From assembly GCA_027315185.1 (NCBI GenBank), contig DAHUYO010000002.1, positions 23,800 through 87,799 on the forward strand: 64,000 nucleotides of DNA, in the 5' to 3' direction. This DNA is from Acidobacteriota bacterium. GTDB taxonomy: Bacteria; Acidobacteriota; Terriglobia; Terriglobales; SCQP01. The notes under the pieces were generated by a model. The model did no database searches. It saw only the letters and a list, made by a program, of their open reading frames with translations, and was not told the origin of the DNA. Of the stretch, positions 3,106 to 44,094 are shown piece after piece. A program made the position numbers and the translations under genes. Within the stretch, counting starts at the first letter, position 1. Each line of letters opens with the position of its first letter.

Positions 3106-3951
3106 ATGCCAACGGCAATCGTGGTGCATGGCGGCTGCGGGCGGGTCGAGGAAAACTCGCTGGCGGAGCGGCGCGCGGGCGTGCGGCAGGCGGCGGAGCG
3201 AGGCTGGGAGATTCTGCGCGCGGGCGGCAGCGCGCTGGACGCGGCGGAGGCGGCGGTGGTGGTGCTGGAGGATCTGCCGCTGTTCAACGCCGGGCGCGGC
3301 TCGGCGCTGACCCGCGACGGACGGATCGAGATGGACGCGGCGATCATGGACGGCGCCACGCGACGGGCGGGGGCGGTGGCCTGCGTCAGCCGCGTCGCGA
3401 ACCCCATCCGATTGGCGCGGCGGGTGATGGAGGCCAGCCCGCACGTGATGCTGTGCGCCGCCGGCGCGGAGGAGTTCGCCGCGCAGCAGGGAATTCCCGC
3501 CTGCGATTGGCGGGACCTGGTCGTCGCGGAGCGGCGGAGCCAGTGGGAACGGGAGCATGGCACGGTCGGCGCGGTGGCGCTGGACGCAGGCGGCGGGTTG
3601 GCGGCGGCGACCTCCACCGGCGGCACCAGCGGCAAGCTGCCGGGGCGCATCGGCGACACGCCGATTATCGGCGCCGGCACCTACGCCGACCGGGCGACGG
3701 CGGTGTCCTGCACTGGAACGGGGGAATCCATTCTGCGCATGACGCTGGCCAGATTGGCGGCGCTCTGGCGGGAGCGGCTGGGCGATGCGCAGGCGGCGGC
3801 GGAACGGGCGCTGGCGGAATTGGCGGCGGAGGTGGGCGGCGAAGCGGGGCTGATTCTCGTGGATCGCGATGGACGGCTCGCCATCGCCCACAACACGCCG
3901 CATATGCCGGTCTGCGCCATCCATGCGGGCGGCATCGAGGTGCGCAGCTAG
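3106..3951 (+). CDS. isoaspartyl peptidase / L-asparaginase (Ntn hydrolase, IaaA family)
   Basis: MPTAIVVHGG..., LFNAGRGS, and HGTVGAVALD (autoproteolytic Thr context) followed by TSTGG. I chose the internal ATG at 3106 because the 5' extension of the track ORF (from 2731) is Arg-rich junk overlapping the previous gene. Confidence 0.9.
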   Translation: MPTAIVVHGGCGRVEENSLAERRAGVRQAAERGWEILRAGGSALDAAEAAVVVLEDLPLFNAGRGSALTRDGRIEMDAAIMDGATRRAGAVACVSRVANPIRLARRVMEASPHVMLCAAGAEEFAAQQGIPACDWRDLVVAERRSQWEREHGTVGAVALDAGGGLAAATSTGGTSGKLPGRIGDTPIIGAGTYADRATAVSCTGTGESILRMTLARLAALWRERLGDAQAAAERALAELAAEVGGEAGLILVDRDGRLAIAHNTPHMPVCAIHAGGIEVRS

Positions 3952-10426: not shown

Positions 10427-11185
10427 ATGGCGGACCAAATGTTACGCGGCCGCGTCGCGGTCGTGACCGGGGCCAGCAAGGGGCTGGGAAAAGCCATGGC
10501 GGTTGCGCTGGCGCGGTCGGGAGCGACGGTGGCTCTAGTGGCGCGCAGCGGCGAGCTGCTGGAGCAAGCGAGGGCGGAGATTGACGCCCAGGGCGGCGAG
10601 TCGCATGTCGTGGTTGCGGACCTCCGCGAGGAGTCCGACGTCGCCCGCATGGCCGGGCAGGTCCGCCGCGCGGTCGGCTCACCCGACATCCTGATCAACA
10701 ACGCGGGCATGAATCTCCGCAAGCCGCTGCACGAATTCACGCTGACGGAGTGGCGGCTGATCATGCAGACGAACCTGGACAGCGCGTTCCTTTGCTCGCG
10801 CGCGTTTGTCCCGGGCATGATCGAGAAGCATTTTGGCCGCATCATCAACATCGCTTCCACCATGGCGCACGTAGCGCTGGCGCATCGCGCCGCCTACTGC
10901 GCCAGCAAGTTCGGCGTTTTGGGAATGACCAAGGCCCTGGCGCTGGAGCTGGCGCCGCATGGGGTCACCGCCAACGCGATCAGTCCGGGACCGTTCGCCA
11001 CGGAAATGAACACCGTCCTGATGCAGGACCCGGTGCGCAATGCGCAGTTCATTTCCCACATACCCGTCGGCCGCTGGGGCAAGGCGGAGGAACTCGGGCC
11101 GCTGGTCACCTTTCTCTGTTCGGAGGCGGCCGGATTTATCACCGGCGCCGACATCCTGATTGACGGGGGCTGGACGGCGCAGTAG
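10427..11185 (+). CDS. SDR family oxidoreductase (FabG/gluconate 5-dehydrogenase-like)
   Basis: VVTGASKGLG, NNAG, the YCASK catalytic motif and a C-terminal ITGADILIDGGWTAQ. AGGAGA RBS before ATG 10427. Confidence 0.9.
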   Translation: MADQMLRGRVAVVTGASKGLGKAMAVALARSGATVALVARSGELLEQARAEIDAQGGESHVVVADLREESDVARMAGQVRRAVGSPDILINNAGMNLRKPLHEFTLTEWRLIMQTNLDSAFLCSRAFVPGMIEKHFGRIINIASTMAHVALAHRAAYCASKFGVLGMTKALALELAPHGVTANAISPGPFATEMNTVLMQDPVRNAQFISHIPVGRWGKAEELGPLVTFLCSEAAGFITGADILIDGGWTAQ

Positions 11186-11369
11186 CAGCCGGCGGCGAGG
11201 AGTCTGGGTTTTCGCGTTGCTAGGCGCCGGCTCCAGCCCCGCCGCGAATGGGCGCGCGGCGGCTGGCCGAGGTCACCGCGCGAGGCGCCTCTGGCGAACC
11301 GCCAGCGGCTCAGCTACGCTAACGGTGCCGGCGGCAGGAGCGCTCGCCGCGGGCCTGCAAGGAGAACCC

Positions 11370-12131
11370 ATGTCCGACGTTTCCCTGCCGCGGCAGATCC
11401 GCCGCCTGCGTATTTTTGCCACCGCCGCCACCGTGATCGCGGCCGCCGCGCTGCTGGTCGCCGCCGAGGCGGTGCATGCCGCGCGCGACGCAACCTTCAA
11501 CACGCTCACCGTGCATCGCCTGATCCTCCGGGATCAGCGCGGCCGCCTGGCGATGGTGCTAACGAACCACGACCAGCCGATGCCGAGCGTCATCAATGGG
11601 CAGCGATTTCCGCGCAGCGGCGGCGGCGGCAACGAGATCATCTTCTACAATCGCCTGGGCAACGAACAGGGCGGCCTGCTGTGGACCGGCCAGCGCGGCG
11701 GACGCGACGGCGGCCAGAGAGGCGCCGGCGCCGCCAGCAGCACCAACGTCTTGTCATTCGACACCGTGAACACCGACCAACTGCTGCAAGTGGACGACGG
11801 CGACGACCATGGCCGCTTCTTTTCCTACATCACCGGCTGGAACCGCGCCGACTTCAACCGGCCGCGGTACCTCCGTCTGTTTCAGCGCCTTGCCGCCGCT
11901 AAAACCCCGGCCGCCCGCCGTGCGGTTTTGCGCAGCCCGGCCGGACAGGCCTATCTGCGCGGCACGGCGCGGCGGTACCTTGTCGGCTACAACCGCCGCA
12001 ACACCGCGATGGTGATGCTGGCCGACGCGCAGGGCCGGCCTCGCATCAAGATGTTCGTGACTCCGGCGGGCAAGGCGGAGCTGGAGTTTCTCAGCGCCAT
12101 GGGCGCGGTCGTCGCCCGCTATCCAAAGTGA
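11370..12131 (+). CDS. hypothetical membrane-anchored/secreted protein
   Basis: AAGGAGAA RBS before ATG 11370. N-terminal anchor RRLRIFATAATVIAAAALLVAAEAVHA. No family recognised. Confidence 0.55.
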   Translation: MSDVSLPRQIRRLRIFATAATVIAAAALLVAAEAVHAARDATFNTLTVHRLILRDQRGRLAMVLTNHDQPMPSVINGQRFPRSGGGGNEIIFYNRLGNEQGGLLWTGQRGGRDGGQRGAGAASSTNVLSFDTVNTDQLLQVDDGDDHGRFFSYITGWNRADFNRPRYLRLFQRLAAAKTPAARRAVLRSPAGQAYLRGTARRYLVGYNRRNTAMVMLADAQGRPRIKMFVTPAGKAELEFLSAMGAVVARYPK

Positions 12132-12379
12132 TGCGGCGCGGCATCGCAGGGCGCGGGTCGGCGGCGTTCCCACGGGCTGGGGCTGCATTGCGACCCGCGC
12201 GGGCCCCGCGCCTTGCGGGTGCTTGCCCGCTGTACGCGCCCGCGGGCCATTGATAGGCGCGGCCCCCGCGATAAGCCCGGCGCACAGAGGCCGAGGCCCG
12301 TTCCATGCTCTCGGCCCAGCCGCGTCCCAGCCCACGCCCGCACGTCGCCTGGGCCGCGCCGACGCTACTGCTGCTGCCG

Positions 12380-13072
12380 CTACATCATGGGCTTTTGCGG
12401 CATGGGCTTCTGCGGCGGCATGCGGCCGCCCCACATACCGCCCCCGCCATGGCCCATCCGCATCATCATGCGCCCATGCATGGCTTGCAGGCGGCGCCAT
12501 TGTTCCGGGGTCAGGATGCGCCGAATGGTCAGGCGGAAATGCACGCCGGCCTGCGCCGACGCCAGGCGCTGCTGTTCGATGCGGGCCAACTGATGGTCAA
12601 TGGCGGCCTCATCCGGCTGCGCCGCCATCATCAGGCGGGCGACTTCGAGGCGGCGCACCTGCTGATTGGCGCGGTCCATGATGCGGGTCTTCCGCCAAGT
12701 GAAGAAGGCGTCACTGAGCTTCTGCGCCTGCTCCGCGGTCAAGCCCAGGCGCTGCCGCAGCATGGACCAATGGGCCATCATGCCCATGCGGCCCATCGGG
12801 CCCATCATACCGGCGTGCATGCCGGCGCCCATGCCGCCGCGCATGGCCATGCCTCCGCGGCGACCCCAGCCGAGCTCACGCTGCATCCCGCCGCGCCACG
12901 CCATGCGCCGGATGATGACGGTGCGCCCCGGGCCGCCGCAGCCGGCGTCGCGGATGCGAACCGCGACTTGCCGGGCCGGCCCGCCTTCGGGCCCGCCCGG
13001 CCCTTGCGCCCACGCCAGCGGCGCCAGCGCCATCAGGCCCGCCGCCGCAAGAACTGCAATGTGCTTATTCAT
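12380..13072 (-). CDS. Spy/CpxP/ZraP family periplasmic protein with Met/His/Gly-rich segments
   Basis: AAGGAAAT RBS before ATG 13072. Signal peptide MNKHIAVLAAAGLMALAPLAWA. Two LTxxQ motifs (LTAEQAQKL, LTPEQWRRL). Met-rich stretches MGAGMHAGMMGPMGRMGMMAH and HGRMMMRMGHGGGGMWGG. Confidence 0.75.
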   Translation of the reverse strand: MNKHIAVLAAAGLMALAPLAWAQGPGGPEGGPARQVAVRIRDAGCGGPGRTVIIRRMAWRGGMQRELGWGRRGGMAMRGGMGAGMHAGMMGPMGRMGMMAHWSMLRQRLGLTAEQAQKLSDAFFTWRKTRIMDRANQQVRRLEVARLMMAAQPDEAAIDHQLARIEQQRLASAQAGVHFRLTIRRILTPEQWRRLQAMHGRMMMRMGHGGGGMWGGRMPPQKPMPQKPMM

Positions 13073-38422: not shown

Positions 38423-38784
38423 TCAGGGGGTGCCTCCGTTGTCCGCCCGCGTCGCCTCAATGCCCGCGAGAAGCGAGGACCGCAAAATGGCGCAGGTGTA
38501 ATCTTCGCTGACCGTCAGCTCGGCGACGCTGAAATTCGCCGTCGAGGCGTTGTTGGTGAAGTCCGAACAGTTGGGGACGAAGGGCACGCCGTTCTGCTCC
38601 ACGTTGTAGGTAATGTATTCCTGAACCAGCGCGCCCCGGTTGCCGCTCTGCGGGCTGGGCGGGTCGCCGCAGAGCGTCACCGTCGCCGGCGGCGGCGGGC
38701 TGAGGGTGACCGGAGCGGAGTAGCGGCTCGAGGAATCGTCGTAACCGTAGCAGCCAACTCCGCCCAGCCTGATGGGCTCAGGCC
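38423..38784 (-). other. orphan C-terminal cassette 3 (short constant stub plus unrelated tip CT3) of the polymorphic locus
   Basis: It begins immediately after the partner B stop (38785-38787). It encodes ...PIRLGGVGCYGYDDSSSRYSAPVTLSPPPPATVT, which matches ITLGGVNCYGAYDTSSCYSAPVTLSPPPPATVT of the main gene. This is followed by the novel tail LCGDPPSPQSGNRGALVQEYITYNVEQNGVPFVPNCSDFTNNASTANFSVAELTVSEDYTCAILRSSLLAGIEATRADNGGTP*. The track ORF is 38423-38863 from a GTG. Confidence 0.65.
38676..38724 (-). repeat. 49-bp third copy of the constant-region repeat (orphan cassette 3)
   Basis: gtcaccgtcgccggcggcggcgggctgagggtgaccggagcggagtagc matches 41746-41794 with 1 mismatch. Weaker similarity continues to about 38775. 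Confidence 0.85.
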
Positions 38785-39531
38785 TCACGTGCCGCCACCT
38801 GGGTGGCTGCTCGCAGAGACCCCCGGGATCGGCGGGGCCGGGGCCTGCGCCAGCGGGATCCACCGCCAGCTCGCCAGGCCGCCCATGGCGTCGCCCCGGG
38901 TTCTCGGGAGCCTCGGGAACACGACCACGGAGGAGAATTGCGGGGCACTGCGCATTGCGAGTGACAACACCCTGCGGACCATGACGTGCTCAAGAGTGCG
39001 GCGCGGAAGCTGACAGCCGAGGCCGGGCAGTGTCGGGCCGGCGATGACCATGGCGCCCGGTAGGGATGGTGAGGCCGCGGTGAGCTCGGTCAATTGCGGC
39101 AGGAACAACCCAACCGGCCCCGCCAGACGGACACGCGGCAGGCGCCAATTTAGAAAATTCTGCCGCCGCCGCCGGAGCGGGCCGTAGGTAAACCACGCGA
39201 CTCCGCCGCGCCGGCGCCAGGAGTATCCCGGGGCGGCGGCCGCCAGCTCCCCGAGAAGGGCGGCGGGCGTGAGCCTGCCGGCGGGGATTTTGGCCTGCGG
39301 GACCGGTGCGACCGAGACGATAGATACGGGGATCCCCGCTCGGTGGGCGATGTCCAAAATGGCCGAATCCAGCCGTAAAGTGCGCGCCGACCACGTGAGC
39401 GGGCGCCGGAGGCGGAGAGCGACGGCACGCTTCAGGCCGGCGGGGCCGCACGGTAGGGACGGAGGCGTGCCCCGCGCGGCGCGGGGAACCAGCAGTGCGG
39501 CGGCAAGCAGCGGTGCGCAGGCTCGCATCAT
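38785..39531 (-). CDS. small secreted partner protein B (paralogue of A) of orphan cassette 2
   Basis: The start ATGATG overlaps the TGA of cassette 2 (CAATGATG). Signal peptide MMRACAPLLAAALLVPRAARG. Blocks shared with A: LTWSARTLRLDSAILDIAHRAGIPVS, LTPAALLGELAAAAPGYSW, QNFLNWRL and ASWRWIPL. Confidence 0.75.
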   Translation of the reverse strand: MMRACAPLLAAALLVPRAARGTPPSLPCGPAGLKRAVALRLRRPLTWSARTLRLDSAILDIAHRAGIPVSIVSVAPVPQAKIPAGRLTPAALLGELAAAAPGYSWRRRGGVAWFTYGPLRRRRQNFLNWRLPRVRLAGPVGLFLPQLTELTAASPSLPGAMVIAGPTLPGLGCQLPRRTLEHVMVRRVLSLAMRSAPQFSSVVVFPRLPRTRGDAMGGLASWRWIPLAQAPAPPIPGVSASSHPGGGT

Positions 39532-40295
39532 TGCCCGTTCACGGTAATCTGCGCGCAAGCGTAGCCGAGCGCGTTGGTACGGACGCCGACGCCGTTCGCG
39601 GATATGGTCTGCGTAACGCTGAGGGCGCACGAACCGGCGGGCGGGCAGCTCCCCGTGGAGCAGGCCGTGGAGCAGAGCGCCAGCGTGTCCGCGCTGGCGA
39701 AGTCGCCGTTGGAGTCGGTGGCCGTTTGCGTGGCGACGGGCATGCCTGTTTGCGTGCCGCAGCTGTCCGATCCCGGGACAAAGCCCTCCGCGATCGGGAT
39801 GCGGGCGATGCCAATCGCCCCGAGGGCGTCGCGCAACTGATACTCGATTTGTCGTTCGGCGCCGCAGGGATAGCCCCCGTCCGCAGCGCTGCACGGGAAG
39901 GTCATCTGCGTCCCTGTGTCGCCCACCACGCCCAGGCTCGTCGGGTCGCGGACGGTGATCCCGCTGACGGGAACCGAAGCGCTCTCGCCCGCGGTGGTGT
40001 AGTCGAGCGTGATCGTCGTGTCGCCAACGGCGCTGCTTTCGGCGGCGGCGCTGTAGGTGATCGTCGCGCCGCTCCCCGACAGGCCCACGGTGCCCTTGTT
40101 GGCACTCCAGGCGTGGCTGCCGCCGCTGGGGTCAACCGAGGCCGTACACGTGCCGGAGGTGTCGAACGCCCCTGTCCCTGTGCCCATAACCAATGTGGCG
40201 GCGCTACAGGCCACGGATACGCTGGGCGTCACCGTCGCCGGCGGCGGAGGGCTGGTCGGCGGCCGGAGCGCTGACCCTACCGGGGTGCGGGACAT
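39528..40295 (-). other. orphan C-terminal cassette 2 (constant region copy plus tip CT2)
   Basis: It encodes PPPPATVTPSVSVACSAATLVMGTGTGAFDTSGTCTASVDPSGGSHAWSANKG...ITVRDPTSL, which differs from the main gene by one residue (H for Y). A diverged Cys-rich tip follows, ending ...YACAQITVNGQ*. An in-frame ATG at 40295 overlaps the partner A 3' end, so independent translation is possible but unproven. Confidence 0.7.
39933..40254 (-). repeat. 322-bp direct repeat, copy 2 (constant region of orphan cassette 2)
   Basis: Aligned by hand to 41449-41770 at a constant offset of 1516 bp. I counted 6 mismatches in 322 bp. Confidence 0.9.
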
Positions 40296-41044
40296 GGGGA
40301 CGGAGCGCAGATTGGATGAAGGTTGTAAATCGGCGATTGCGTGAACGGGATCCACTGCCAGCTGGAGAGGGCCGCCTCGATGTCGGCTCGGCTGAACGGC
40401 GGCGCGTGGGGAAACGTCATCTGGGAGGTGAAGCTGGGGTTGTGGGAGAGCACCATGCGCAATATCGCGCCCGCGGTCGCTCCATGCATCGTGGCGGGCG
40501 CCAGCGGCCGCCCCGGGAGCTGCGGCAAAAAGCCTTCGATGGGCGCAGTCGGCTTCTCGCCCGGGTTGATGTTCCACAGCGCCTGGCCGAGCCAAAGAAG
40601 ATTGTCCCCCGGGTTGGGGCGGACTGAGTAGGTCGCCAACTTCCAGTTGAGCGGGTTCTGCGGGCTGCGGGACAACTGCGCGGCATAGAACCGGACCACC
40701 CCGCCCGCCGCGTCCCAGGCGTACCCTGGCGCCGCGCCGGCAAAGCGCCCGAGCAGCGCCGCCGGCGCGAGTTCCGCCTGCGGGACCTGCACCACCGGCA
40801 GCGGCTGCTCCAGCAGCATGGACACCGGAATTCCGGACCGGCGGGCGACGTGCCGGACCGCGCGGTCCAACGGCAGGTGGCGCGCGCTCCAGCGGAGCGG
40901 CTCCCTTAGTCGCGCCGCGACGCAGGCGCCGTCATTGGGAGGGCATGGCGGGGGCAGTACCCGGTCAGCGGCGGCCGGCGAGCGGGCCAGCGGCGCGGAC
41001 CACAAGATGAACAGGGCCAACGCCCGCGTGAGGTCCGTCCTCAT
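40277..41044 (-). CDS. small secreted partner protein A (candidate immunity/chaperone) of main tip CT1
   Basis: The ATG overlaps the main-gene stop (CAATGA). Signal peptide MRTDLTRALALFILWSAPLARSPAAA. Length 255 aa. Homologous to partner B. Confidence 0.75.
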   Translation of the reverse strand: MRTDLTRALALFILWSAPLARSPAAADRVLPPPCPPNDGACVAARLREPLRWSARHLPLDRAVRHVARRSGIPVSMLLEQPLPVVQVPQAELAPAALLGRFAGAAPGYAWDAAGGVVRFYAAQLSRSPQNPLNWKLATYSVRPNPGDNLLWLGQALWNINPGEKPTAPIEGFLPQLPGRPLAPATMHGATAGAILRMVLSHNPSFTSQMTFPHAPPFSRADIEAALSSWQWIPFTQSPIYNLHPICAPSPCPAPR

Positions 41045-43689
41045 TGTCCGTTCACCGTGATTTTGGCGCAGCCGTATGCGACGGCATTATTGCGCACCGC
41101 GAGGCCGTTGGCGTACCAGGTTTGGCCAACCGTCTCCTGGCAGGAGCCCGGCGGTGGGCATGCTCCAGTGGAGCAGGAGCTCGAGCACAGGGCCAGGGTG
41201 TCGGCGGTTGGGAACTCCCCGTTCGCCTGGGTCACACCACTGGTGGCGCGCGGCGTCGCGGGAACCCCGGCGCAGCCATCGACGCCAGCCGTGAACGCCT
41301 CCTGCACCGGAATTCCGCCGACCTCGACGGCGCCGAGCCCGTCTGCCACCTGGTACACGATCTGCCGCTGCGCGCCGCAGCTGTAGTCGCCCAGGCCCGC
41401 AGCTGAGCAGTTGAACGTCTGCTCGGTACCGGTGTCGCTGAGCACCAGCAGGCTCGTCGGGTCGCGGACGGTGATCCCGCTAACGGGAACCGACGCGCTC
41501 TCGCCCGCGGTGGTGTAGTCGAGCGTGATCGTCGTGTCGCCAACGGCGCTGCTTTCGGCGGCGGCGCTGTAGGTGATCGTCGCGCCGCTCCCCGACAGGC
41601 CCACGGTGCCCTTGTTGGCACTCCAGGCGTAGCTGCCGCCGCTGGGGTCAACCGAGGCCGTACACGTGCCGGAGGTGTCGAACGCCCCTGTCCCTGTGCC
41701 CATAACCAGTGTGGCGGCGCTACAGGCCACGGATACGCTGGGCGTCACCGTGGCCGGCGGCGGCGGGCTGAGGGTGACCGGAGCGGAGTAGCAACTGGAC
41801 GTGTCGTAGGCGCCGTAGCAGTTGACGCCGCCCAGGGTAATCGGGTCGAATTCGACGTTGATGGTGGTTTCGCCCGGACCAACGCCGACCAATTCGCCCC
41901 CGGAATACACTGTGACCTGCGTGTTAGTGACGGTAATGGTGGCGATCAGCACGTCCTGTTGGCCGTTGCAGTAGCAGCCGAAGGGCTGAATGCTGAGCTT
42001 GCCGTTCACGTCCAGCAGCAGCGTGGCCGGGCTGAGGCCGAAGTTGTCGTAGGTGCAGCAGGGGTCGCAATAACAGCCGCAGGTGCCGTTGGCGGGGTTG
42101 TAGACGGCGACCTCGGCGTTGAGATGCAGCCAGGTGGTGTGGCTGTCGGCGCTCTCGAAGCTCATGCTGCCGGATTGCTCTGTCATTTGGAATTGCCGGC
42201 CTTTGTGGTCCGCGCGCCCGGAAGCGATCAGCTGCCAAAGATCAATCGTCTCCGAGGCCATCGGAGCCAAATGCACCGGCAGGGTGTACCGGCCGCTGCC
42301 GTCCGCGTAGCGCAGGCGGACCAGGATGTCCTCTGCGGTTGCGCCGGTGTTCCACAAGGTGATCATGGTGTCATAGCCGCCACCGGTGGCCCAATAGGAT
42401 TCGCGTTTGCCGAAGCTGCGCTGGACCGGTTCCGGCAGCACGGCAAAGACGAAGCTGCCGCTGAGGTCCACGCTGCCGGCGGCAACAATAAGGTCGCCCT
42501 CGTGCCCGGTGAAGGAGACCATTACGTTGACCGAGCCGTCGAAGCCGGCGAGGCCCGCCGCGCTGAGAATGCCCTGCATGTCGACCTGTGCGCTGCCGCC
42601 GGGGGCAAAGCGCAGCGGCGGCAGGGCGTACCGGTCGCTGCTGTCGGCGGGCGCGGAAGCGGTCCCGTCCTGGCTGCCCTCCGGCTGCCAGCACAGGGTG
42701 ACATGGACATCGAGCGGCGCGGCGCCGGCGTTGCGCAGGACCAGGTAGGGCTGGAAGCGGAGGCTGGGACGGAAGCCCAGCGCGGGATCGGGCATGCCGA
42801 CCAGCAAACCGGGGGCGGCGTAGCGGTAGCTTGCGGCGGCGCCGCCGCGATCGTGAAAGCCATAGGGCATGTGGTCGGAGTAGCCTTCGGCGTTGTTCTC
42901 CAGTAGCCCGGCGACCAGCAACTGGCCCATGATGCCCCGGTAGTTGATGGTGATGCCGCCGGAGGAAGCGAGATAGCCGCGGATCTGGGCGATCTGGCCG
43001 GACAGGTCGAGCAGTTGCGACTGGTGCGGGCCGAGCGCAACGCTCTTGGCCGGCAGCGGCGCCCCCGAGGAGCCGGTGATTTGATAGCTCACGTCCAGGT
43101 CCTGGCCGGAGGTGTTGGCCAGCGACAGCAGTCCATGGACTCCGGGGTCATGCCGCCACCACAGCATTTCGATGCGGTGCGGCGCCGGTCCCGGATCGGG
43201 GATCGGCGCGCCAACACCCACCGGCTGGACGACCTGGGGCGGCTGGAACGCGTCGGTGAAGATCAGGCTGCGGCCGGCATCCAGCATCTGCATGCTGGCG
43301 ACGACGTGGCCGGGCGAGCTCCACGTGTAGCTCAGCTCGGCGCTGCCATGCGCAGGCGCTGCCCCCGGCGGAAGAATGGCGTTCAGGGCGCGGTTGATAT
43401 TGACATCGGCCTCGCCGCCGGCAGGGAGGATTACTGCCGGCAGGGTGAGCTGGCTGCCGTCCGGCGTAAACAGCGACGGGGTCACCATGAGTGGCGCGGT
43501 AATAAGGGAGTTTTTGATGTGGATGGTCGAGACAAAGCCGCCATCGGTTCGCCATAGCCCGCAGAACAGCGAGCAGGTTGCCATCGCGCCCATGGCGGCG
43601 CCGGGGCTCGCCGCACCGGCCATCTTCGCGCCATCCGCCATCACCGCCCGAATCGCAGCCGCCCGCGGCTTGGGCTTGGGCAAGGCCAA
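41041..43689 (-). CDS. large secreted beta-rich protein with Big_2-like Ig domain, constant stalk and Cys-rich variable C-terminal tip CT1 (main gene of the polymorphic cassette locus)
   Basis: 882-aa ORF with normal composition. Ig-like segment LSPATLLLDVNGKLSIQPFG...VLIATITVTNTQVTVYSGGELVGVGPGETTINVEF. Constant region duplicated downstream. The tip has 8 Cys and ends ITVNGQ*. The track start (TTG 43689) lacks a signal peptide, which is encoded in another frame just upstream. Confidence 0.8.
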   Translation of the reverse strand: MALPKPKPRAAAIRAVMADGAKMAGAASPGAAMGAMATCSLFCGLWRTDGGFVSTIHIKNSLITAPLMVTPSLFTPDGSQLTLPAVILPAGGEADVNINRALNAILPPGAAPAHGSAELSYTWSSPGHVVASMQMLDAGRSLIFTDAFQPPQVVQPVGVGAPIPDPGPAPHRIEMLWWRHDPGVHGLLSLANTSGQDLDVSYQITGSSGAPLPAKSVALGPHQSQLLDLSGQIAQIRGYLASSGGITINYRGIMGQLLVAGLLENNAEGYSDHMPYGFHDRGGAAASYRYAAPGLLVGMPDPALGFRPSLRFQPYLVLRNAGAAPLDVHVTLCWQPEGSQDGTASAPADSSDRYALPPLRFAPGGSAQVDMQGILSAAGLAGFDGSVNVMVSFTGHEGDLIVAAGSVDLSGSFVFAVLPEPVQRSFGKRESYWATGGGYDTMITLWNTGATAEDILVRLRYADGSGRYTLPVHLAPMASETIDLWQLIASGRADHKGRQFQMTEQSGSMSFESADSHTTWLHLNAEVAVYNPANGTCGCYCDPCCTYDNFGLSPATLLLDVNGKLSIQPFGCYCNGQQDVLIATITVTNTQVTVYSGGELVGVGPGETTINVEFDPITLGGVNCYGAYDTSSCYSAPVTLSPPPPATVTPSVSVACSAATLVMGTGTGAFDTSGTCTASVDPSGGSYAWSANKGTVGLSGSGATITYSAAAESSAVGDTTITLDYTTAGESASVPVSGITVRDPTSLLVLSDTGTEQTFNCSAAGLGDYSCGAQRQIVYQVADGLGAVEVGGIPVQEAFTAGVDGCAGVPATPRATSGVTQANGEFPTADTLALCSSSCSTGACPPPGSCQETVGQTWYANGLAVRNNAVAYGCAKITVNGQ
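41449..41770 (-). repeat. 322-bp direct repeat, copy 1 (constant region of main gene)
   Basis: See the partner copy at 39933-40254. Confidence 0.9.
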
Positions 43690-43712
43690 CGGATCAAACG
43701 GCAGGGATTGGG

Positions 43713-43841
43713 CTATGCGGCGGGGGGGCCGTTTTGCGGCGCCGCCGGGGCGGCGTGGGGACGGGAGGCGAAGAGCCCGACGGCTAGGGCGGCGGCGACG
43801 GGCAACAGCACGTAACGAGCAGGACCAGACAGCGACTTCAT
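43713..43841 (-). CDS. 42-codon ORF encoding a Sec signal peptide, probably the displaced 5' end of the large protein gene
   Basis: MKSLSGPARYVLLPVAAALAVGLFASRPHAAPAAPQNGPPAA*. The main ORF frame is open from just upstream of this ATG. One extra G in the G7 tract (43722-43728) would fuse the two frames. Confidence 0.55.
   Translation of the reverse strand: MKSLSGPARYVLLPVAAALAVGLFASRPHAAPAAPQNGPPAA
43722..43728 (-). repeat. homopolymer tract (G7 on plus strand, C7 in the mRNA sense) at the signal-peptide/body frame junction
   Basis: Read directly: cgggggggcc at 43721-43730. A +1 nt change places MKSL...NGPP in frame with RRIAQSLPFDPLALPKPKP... of the 882-aa ORF. Confidence 0.6.
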
Positions 43842-44094
43842 ACTAAAATCAGTCCCCGCTGGTCAGAGTAGTACCGCAACACCCGCATTAGTCAACAGAA
43901 AAATTCACCAGCCCATTTTTTGTAGCTAGCTCCCTTGTCATTAACTAAAAGGTTATTCCAGCGGGCGCCACGGCGGCCGGAGGAAAAACCTGCTTGCCGC
44001 CCCCGCGGCGGCCCGGCCCGACCGGCGCCGCCCAACCGCGAGCACGGGCGCCACCGGCGCGGCGCCTCACGGCGGCGGGCGGCGTCCGCGCCTT

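Follow-up and report, generated by a model that had tools for sequence, protein, structure and literature searches.

A length-variable poly-C run between the signal peptide and body of a predicted large secreted protein: a probable phase-variation locus in an uncultured Terriglobales bacterium

Reading frames of the locus

The DNA analysed here (hereafter the window) is a 64,000-nucleotide (nt) stretch of contig DAHUYO010000002.1 (positions 23,800 to 87,799) from an Acidobacteriota bacterium of the order Terriglobales, and the subject is a gene on its minus strand in which a predicted signal peptide and the large protein body behind it lie in different reading frames, with a run of seven C residues between them. 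The parts of the locus, including its open reading frames (ORFs), are as follows.

43713..43841, minus strand: signal-peptide ORF of 42 codons, from ATG 43841 to TAG 43715-43713, with the sequence MKSLSGPARYVLLPVAAALAVGLFASRPHAAPAAPQNGPPAA
43722..43728, minus strand: poly-C run at the frame junction, C7 in the mRNA and G7 on the plus strand
43690..43721, minus strand: body-frame codons RRIAQSLPFDP, filling the interval between the run and the first possible start
41041..43689, minus strand: body ORF of 882 codons, counted from TTG 43689
43890..43895, minus strand: -35-like TTGACT, followed after 16 nt by TACTACT (43873-43867), a putative promoter

An earlier note on this DNA had given the coordinates of both ORFs, the C7 run, an 882-aa frame beginning at TTG 43689 and a 933-codon fusion of the two, and re-reading and translating the minus strand confirmed each of them. 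In all-frame translation, the body frame is offset by +2/-1 relative to the signal-peptide ORF; it is open back to 43842 and contains zero ATG, GTG or TTG codons upstream of 43689. With one C added, the two frames merge into an uninterrupted ORF of 933 codons whose junction reads ...QNGPPRRIAQSLPFDPLA..., and removal of two gives a fusion of 932 codons, such that window run lengths of C5, C8 and C11 join the signal peptide to the body, C8 with a Pro-Pro junction. The junction peptides predicted for the fusion are ...APQNGPPR and RIAQSLPFDPLALPK, and an example of an interrupted C run is CCACCGCC.

GC content at third codon positions (GC3) is high in the signal-peptide frame to ~43737 and in the body frame from ~43706, and the coding signal therefore switches frame at the run. 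Because the window has a GC content of 69%, a 51-codon open frame is unremarkable on its own, and the weight of the argument comes from comparative data. The run itself is the only G/C run of at least 7 nt in the 64-kb window, where ~4.8 such runs are expected under order-2/3 Markov models and ~23 under an order-1 model. G/C homopolymers are strongly avoided in this DNA, and the position of the one long run exactly at the frame junction is more than chance.

Run length in close relatives

The comparison set comprises nine assemblies including the window, representing eight strains and drawn from four sources (ENA, JGI and Logan among them). Apart from the window there are eight assemblies of seven distinct strains, as L029 and L030 are identical. 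The protein P0002 (74% identical) is encoded on ENA contig L001, P0015 on L026 is the third full-length relative, and further loci were reached via cluster members of the divergently transcribed LmbE/PIG-L neighbour. The gene is complete at three loci (window, L001 and L026) and partial at the other five. Contigs L033-L035 were left out because they end before the region or have no match upstream. Scanning JGI metagenome contigs for a degenerate peptide taken from the N-terminal alignment of the window and L001 retrieved no relatives, and a specific DNA-pattern scan of these contigs re-found the L001 contig and nothing else; the JGI collection evidently lacks samples holding the relatives. The alleles and the changes that restore the frame are listed below.

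Window: C7, frame restored by +1 or -2 nt
L032: C7, frame restored by +1 or -2 nt
L001: C8, body in the +1 frame, frame restored by -1 or +2 nt
L029 (identical to L030): C7, frame restored by -1 or +2 nt
L026: C11, frame restored by -1 or +2 nt
L031: C11, frame restored by -1 or +2 nt
L027: C9, frame restored by -1 or +2 nt
L028: C15, frame restored by +1 or -2 nt

The comparison of the tract across related genomes, which the earlier note had proposed, finds its length differing among close relatives with conserved flanks. The loci are 88-98.6% identical overall and the DNA on either side of the run is conserved, with the run ranging from C7 to C15; four strains at 96-98.5% mutual identity carry C9, C11, C11 and C15. 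Uniformly in-frame orthologues without length heterogeneity had been named as a result that would speak against a switch, and the orthologues are neither in frame nor uniform. L032 comes from Logan, was assembled independently and belongs to a different strain, whose sequence matches the window at 98.56% identity with zero gaps over 5.3 kb. In silico, a one-step change of the run converts every allele to a colinear product with the junction ...HAAPAAPQ[NS][GA]PP(P)R[RH][IL]AQ[SP]LPFDP.... These single-step fusions are 869-933 aa long in the three complete genes and stay open to the end of the contig in the five partial loci, and the remaining two phases stop after 41-52 codons, in the window after 42-49.

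Two further observations concern runs in these contigs. The 60.9-kb JGI contig carrying C9 (L027) ends ~60 nt past the run, inside the gene, which may reflect an assembly break from heterogeneity or divergence at or after the run. On L001 a Peptidase_M15_3-like gene (11034-11879) has a G7 run (11865-11871) at its 3' end, where it overlaps the next gene (11876-12661).

Selection on both halves of the gene

Both halves of the gene are under purifying selection. In a codon comparison of the three complete genes (window versus L001 and L026), the ratio of nonsynonymous to synonymous substitution rates (dN/dS) in the body is 0.16-0.21 at a dS of 0.35-0.70. The signal-peptide ORF is intact in all nine loci, with a dN/dS of 0.26-0.40 at dS up to 1.0, and the body ORFs of the three complete genes (850-933 codons) contain no other stop or frameshift. 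The constraint extends into the stretch between the run and the first start, where 11-14 body-frame codons encode a peptide common to nine of nine loci, RR[IL]AQ[SP]LPFDP[LM]A. Over the first 14 codons after the run, window and L001 show six synonymous versus three nonsynonymous differences. The start codons of the body are not conserved, being TTG or ATG in the window and GTG, ATG or TTG elsewhere. Protein-level selection on this peptide, which lies upstream of any start, would require translation to enter the body from the signal-peptide ORF.

The two halves also differ in their apparent histories. Between the window and L026 dS is 0.83 in the signal-peptide part and 0.35 in the body, and between the window and L001 it is 0.13 and 0.70, respectively (regions compared: window 43713-43960, L026:2700-2970 and L001:5700-5960). 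Upstream, the promoter regions are of two types, TTGACTaat...TACTACT and TTGACTtgag...GTAGGCT. The pattern suggests a mosaic locus with a recombination breakpoint near the run. A generic sigma-70 scan upstream of ATG 43841 found no canonical promoter, and TTGACT...TACTACT is put forward as a putative promoter by virtue of its conservation, the block ttctgTTGACTaat..gcggTACTACTct being kept in L001, L029 and L032.

Signal peptide and predicted protein

The signal-peptide ORF has an n-region with K2 and R9, the h-region LLPVAAALAVGLFA and the c-region SRPHA-A, with candidate cleavage sites LFA|S or PHA|A judged by eye only. This part is followed by APAAPQNGPP and then by an out-of-frame AA and the stop. 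The N-terminus of the window protein can be aligned to the hydrophobic segments at the N-termini of distant homologues and probably acts as a cleaved Sec signal. Read from TTG 43689, the body has no signal peptide of its own.

In the body, four predicted beta-sandwich domains are accompanied by a segment rich in Cys and by a C-terminal module that is variable. An AlphaFold (AF2) model of the first 605 residues has a mean predicted local distance difference test score (pLDDT) of 74.5, with residues 1-85 disordered and the remainder all-beta, and a Foldseek search against the PDB returned weak matches only, to strings of macroglobulin or immunoglobulin-like (beta-sandwich) domains. Neither the large protein nor its two downstream partners has a match in Pfam. 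The best explanation of the predicted features is that the gene would encode a large secreted all-beta protein of this uncultured Terriglobales bacterium.

The called products of the three complete loci (P0001, P0002 and P0015) all lack the signal peptide; in the NCBI annotation P0001 has 866 aa from ATG 43641, and the starts called by the NCBI, ENA and JGI pipelines are ATG (866 aa), ATG (812 aa) and TTG (875 aa), respectively. Such loci are silently mis-annotated by the pipelines rather than flagged as frameshifted.

Distant family members

A search with the fused protein returned 14 relatives, and 23 loci came from species-representative genomes, nearly all of them metagenome-assembled genomes (MAGs) of Acidobacteriota (Terriglobia and Bryobacterales). 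The contig scan of species-representative genomes returned distant family members only (at most 45% identity), and the species of the window is not represented there. Among named homologues, the window UvrA comes closest to proteins of Terriglobales MAGs (81% and 66% identity), on which the taxonomic placement rests; the clusters of ten further window proteins yielded no organism names. Distant homologues (30-42% identity), both the called proteins and the 23 loci, have a hydrophobic, signal-like N-terminus 30-70 aa before an invariant GLWRTDGGF motif. At L002 (49% identical) the called start is too short, and an upstream in-frame ATG gives MSARIWSKRNWILLTIFLLVLTVFATQNGLRHNDDYPRRI..., a signal peptide in frame with the body; its QNG...PRRI junction is like that of the window and contains no homopolymer. 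The in-frame signal peptides of these distant homologues therefore identify signal peptide, linker and body as the ancestral architecture.

A second variable tract is found in L015 and L018, two related family members in Terriglobia MAGs. A conserved upstream TTGACA is followed in both by poly-G, G13 in L015 (577-612, in the context CA-G13-A) versus G8 in L018 (3774-3800), and the tracts precede TACGGTTTACTCT and the start codon. This poly-G is a candidate promoter-spacer phase-variation tract, and on that reading homopolymer switches would therefore recur in the gene family. L018 also has its signal-peptide part out of frame with the body (3850-3950) through a 1-nt deletion relative to L015 that lies outside homopolymers, and in L007 (3180-3340) the shift of frame falls at some point between FPAVQAQS and MPAGMHMPPPMPQ. 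These two frame breaks may be pseudogenes, assembly errors or further switches.

A probable phase-variation switch

We consider it probable that the gene is a simple-sequence-repeat, slipped-strand phase-variation (contingency) locus, in which the run is hypermutable and the window carries an OFF allele. The run would be a localized hypermutable site in a disordered linker, ~10 codons after the signal peptide, at which C residues are gained or lost when strands slip and mispair during replication. One phase in three would join signal peptide and body, inserting one to five prolines in the linker, and the two other phases would abort early, leaving the body untranslated or, at best, unexported. 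The C7 run of the window is out of phase with the body and the allele would therefore be genetically OFF, one insertion away from ON. Switching would be reversible and frequent, and ON cells would exist.

The earlier note had favoured such an ON/OFF switch by homopolymer slippage in a secreted or surface protein, and among the readings considered here it remains the best fit. It is backed by the run-length polymorphism, by the one-step restoration of every allele, by purifying selection on both halves and by the in-frame signal peptides of distant homologues.

Several points weigh against a switch. None of the eight strains has an in-frame allele. Under random phases the chance that all are out of frame is (2/3)^8 = 0.039 counted by strain and 0.088 for the six distinct alleles, and the all-OFF pattern is thus suggestive, not significant. 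L026 and L031 differ by 4% yet share C11, and the window and L032 share C7, neither of which resembles a very fast switch; C7 moreover stands at the low end of the tract lengths known to switch. The C11 and C15 lengths come from short-read assemblies and are maybe off by one, and all run lengths are those of assembled consensus sequences, in which heterogeneity within populations is invisible. If the locus is a switch, ON cells may be a minority in situ, with expression being costly or risky and assemblers reporting the majority sequence.

Alternative explanations

The strongest alternative, which we nevertheless regard as unlikely, is obligate or leaky recoding, whereby the out-of-frame arrangement is the normal state and a low, run-length-dependent amount of full-length product arises either from RNA polymerase slipping on the C run or from peptidyl-tRNA-Pro slipping on CCC_C (+1) or C_CCC (-1) during proline pausing. 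It would account for all eight strains being out of frame while both halves are under purifying selection, although the lack of ON alleles reaches no more than marginal significance (p 0.04-0.09). With 9-15 C, a run can span an entire RNA:DNA hybrid, tRNA-Pro can re-pair perfectly on poly-C in either direction, and +1 shifting of tRNA-Pro on CCC-N is established. The phase of the window run also fits the formal heptamer pattern X XXY YYZ, as C CCC CCC.

The direction of the required shift, however, differs among strains, being a net -1 nt in five and +1 nt in three. By type of shift, the window, L032 (C7) and L028 (C15) are of the -1 type and L001, L029, L026, L031 and L027 of the +1 type. Run length is likewise not conserved, whereas known programmed sites conserve both length and direction. 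Folding of 90 nt on each side of the run gave structures that were no more stable than those of shuffled sequence (z -0.9 to +2.8; pseudoknots lie outside the model), with no frameshift stimulator or slippage hairpin above the shuffled controls, and the lack of an unusually stable RNA structure 5' or 3' of the run counts against recoding. All-G:C slippery sites are poor for -1 frameshifting, and rC:dG hybrids disfavour transcriptional slippage, which also count against it. Programmed transcriptional realignment usually involves a homopolymer of A or T, nine or more in length and fixed. The locus has the out-of-frame state expected of realignment in eight of eight strains, but its run is of C, 7-15 nt long and in two phases. 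The -1 ribosomal slip on C CCC CCC that the earlier note had offered as an alternative lacks support as a conserved mechanism, since the shift required by five of the eight strains goes the other way and folding showed no stimulatory structure.

A variant that dispenses with a fixed direction or site length is that the run is a tunable leaky gate. The gene would then never be in frame in the DNA, protein would be made only through slippage of RNA polymerase or tRNA-Pro from either phase, and the length of the run (C7-C15) would set the level. We think this quite unlikely.

Equally doubtful in our estimation is a pseudogene, that is, a decaying gene with a frameshift in a mutation-prone run that drifts neutrally. 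Every sampled allele is disrupted, and L018 and L007 are also out of frame, at non-homopolymer sites. Decay, however, is at odds with a body dN/dS of 0.16-0.21 over dS up to 0.7 and no secondary lesions in the three complete genes, and with a signal-peptide ORF that is intact and constrained in nine of nine loci. The run itself is the sole frame-breaking lesion, and each allele is one step from repair.

A sequencing or assembly error, with the true window sequence in frame (C8), was the trivial explanation named in the earlier note and is very improbable. Consensus indel errors classically occur at homopolymers, the C11 and C15 lengths are uncertain in short-read assemblies, and the coverage of L001 is ~5x according to its contig name. 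A plain consensus error is nonetheless unlikely because the C7 state recurs in an independent strain and assembly (L032), and none of the nine assemblies, made with different pipelines, is in frame, two different phases occurring among them. Differences of 7 versus 11 versus 15 are too large for miscalls. Elsewhere in the window, 16 of 21 other homopolymers of at least 6 nt lie inside intact long ORFs (the remaining five are not within any long high-GC3 frame), and large genes of 976-996 aa are intact.

Least probable of all is a pair of genes, a small exported or leader peptide ORF and a cytoplasmic body translated from an internal start, as the annotation pipelines imply by calling the body alone in all three complete loci; the body starts are not conserved and are all preceded by a conserved body-frame peptide, the homologues are signal-peptide proteins, and the Cys-rich, all-beta body resembles an extracytoplasmic protein.

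Comparison with known systems

A close parallel to a switch at this position is pilC of Neisseria gonorrhoeae, which is switched by a homo-G tract in the signal-peptide region (PMC5354566). In pilC of N. gonorrhoeae and N. meningitidis, as here, a G/C homopolymer lies in the 5' coding region at the signal peptide, and its length shifts the frame and gates the mature protein. The systems differ in that the pilC tract is within the signal-peptide region whereas the run described here lies just after the predicted signal peptide, in that Neisseria are host-restricted pathogens as opposed to a free-living uncultured Terriglobales, and in the unrelated protein families (no Pfam match here). At the present locus, moreover, none of the sampled alleles is in the ON phase.

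A run as short as that of the window has a precedent in the high-GC Mycobacterium tuberculosis, where a 7-nt G/C tract in glpK is accepted as phase-variable and where homopolymers of at least 7 nt are rare in the genome and concentrate indels (PMC10334774). The glpK tract (7C/7G) resembles the window run in being a 7-nt G/C run in the coding region of a high-GC bacterium, and its frameshifts are reversible. Unlike the present gene, glpK encodes a cytoplasmic metabolic enzyme, with the tract mid-gene, the ON state common and the OFF state transient, whereas at this locus the run varies from C7 to C15 between strains and every allele sampled is OFF.

The poly-G/C contingency loci of Campylobacter, Helicobacter and Haemophilus (localized hypermutation in the sense of Moxon) resemble this one in that a localized hypermutable repeat differs in length between near-identical strains and belongs to a gene whose product is secreted or on the surface. 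They also include promoter tracts, to which the G13 of L015 and G8 of L018 in a putative promoter may be likened. The genomes of these pathogens are AT-rich or of moderate GC content and hold dozens of such tracts. Here, by contrast, there is a single G/C run of at least 7 nt in 64 kb, in DNA of 69% GC.

Programmed frameshifting and transcriptional realignment, as in dnaX, prfB and insertion sequence (IS) elements, likewise join overlapping frames at a slippery homopolymer, and the window has an in-phase X XXY YYZ. This locus departs from them in its atypical all-C composition and in a shift direction and run length that vary among orthologues, and folding gave no stimulatory structure.

Downstream cassettes

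Downstream of the large gene, the minus strand of the window (38668-41044) holds a series of related genes and fragments.

41044-40277, minus strand: 255-aa protein with a signal peptide
40295-39528, minus strand: orphan copy of the C-terminal module of the large gene, 74% identical overall
39534-38785, minus strand: paralogue of the 255-aa protein, 40% identical
38668-38779: 112-nt fragment, 80% identical to 41736-41847

The identity of the orphan module to its counterpart is unevenly spread, the first ~97 aa being ~99% identical and the last ~135 aa diverged. L026 has the same gene order downstream. The layout is similar to that of polymorphic-toxin loci (contact-dependent inhibition, CDI, or Rhs), in which a main gene is followed by orphan C-terminus and partner cassettes, or to that of variable-protein loci with silent cassettes. 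It suggests that the C-terminal module may be swappable by recombination, with a silent spare copy downstream.

Significance for free-living bacteria

To our knowledge, studies of simple-repeat phase variation have dealt almost entirely with host-associated pathogens. A full-text literature search found no paper connecting Acidobacteriota with phase-variable genes, and a 2025 review points to a knowledge gap on phase variation in soil and ocean bacteria (PMC11868660). The kind of mechanism proposed here is already known; the new elements are an uncultured Terriglobales as the organism, the gene family, and a demonstration that draws on nothing but public assemblies. As read from its alleles, the locus would offer a concrete case of a single hypervariable C run gating both export and translation of a large secreted protein. 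Given the all-OFF pattern, one may ask whether expression occurs only rarely in situ or depends on slippage at decoding. If the proposed switch is true, bet-hedging through contingency loci operates in abundant free-living soil bacteria.

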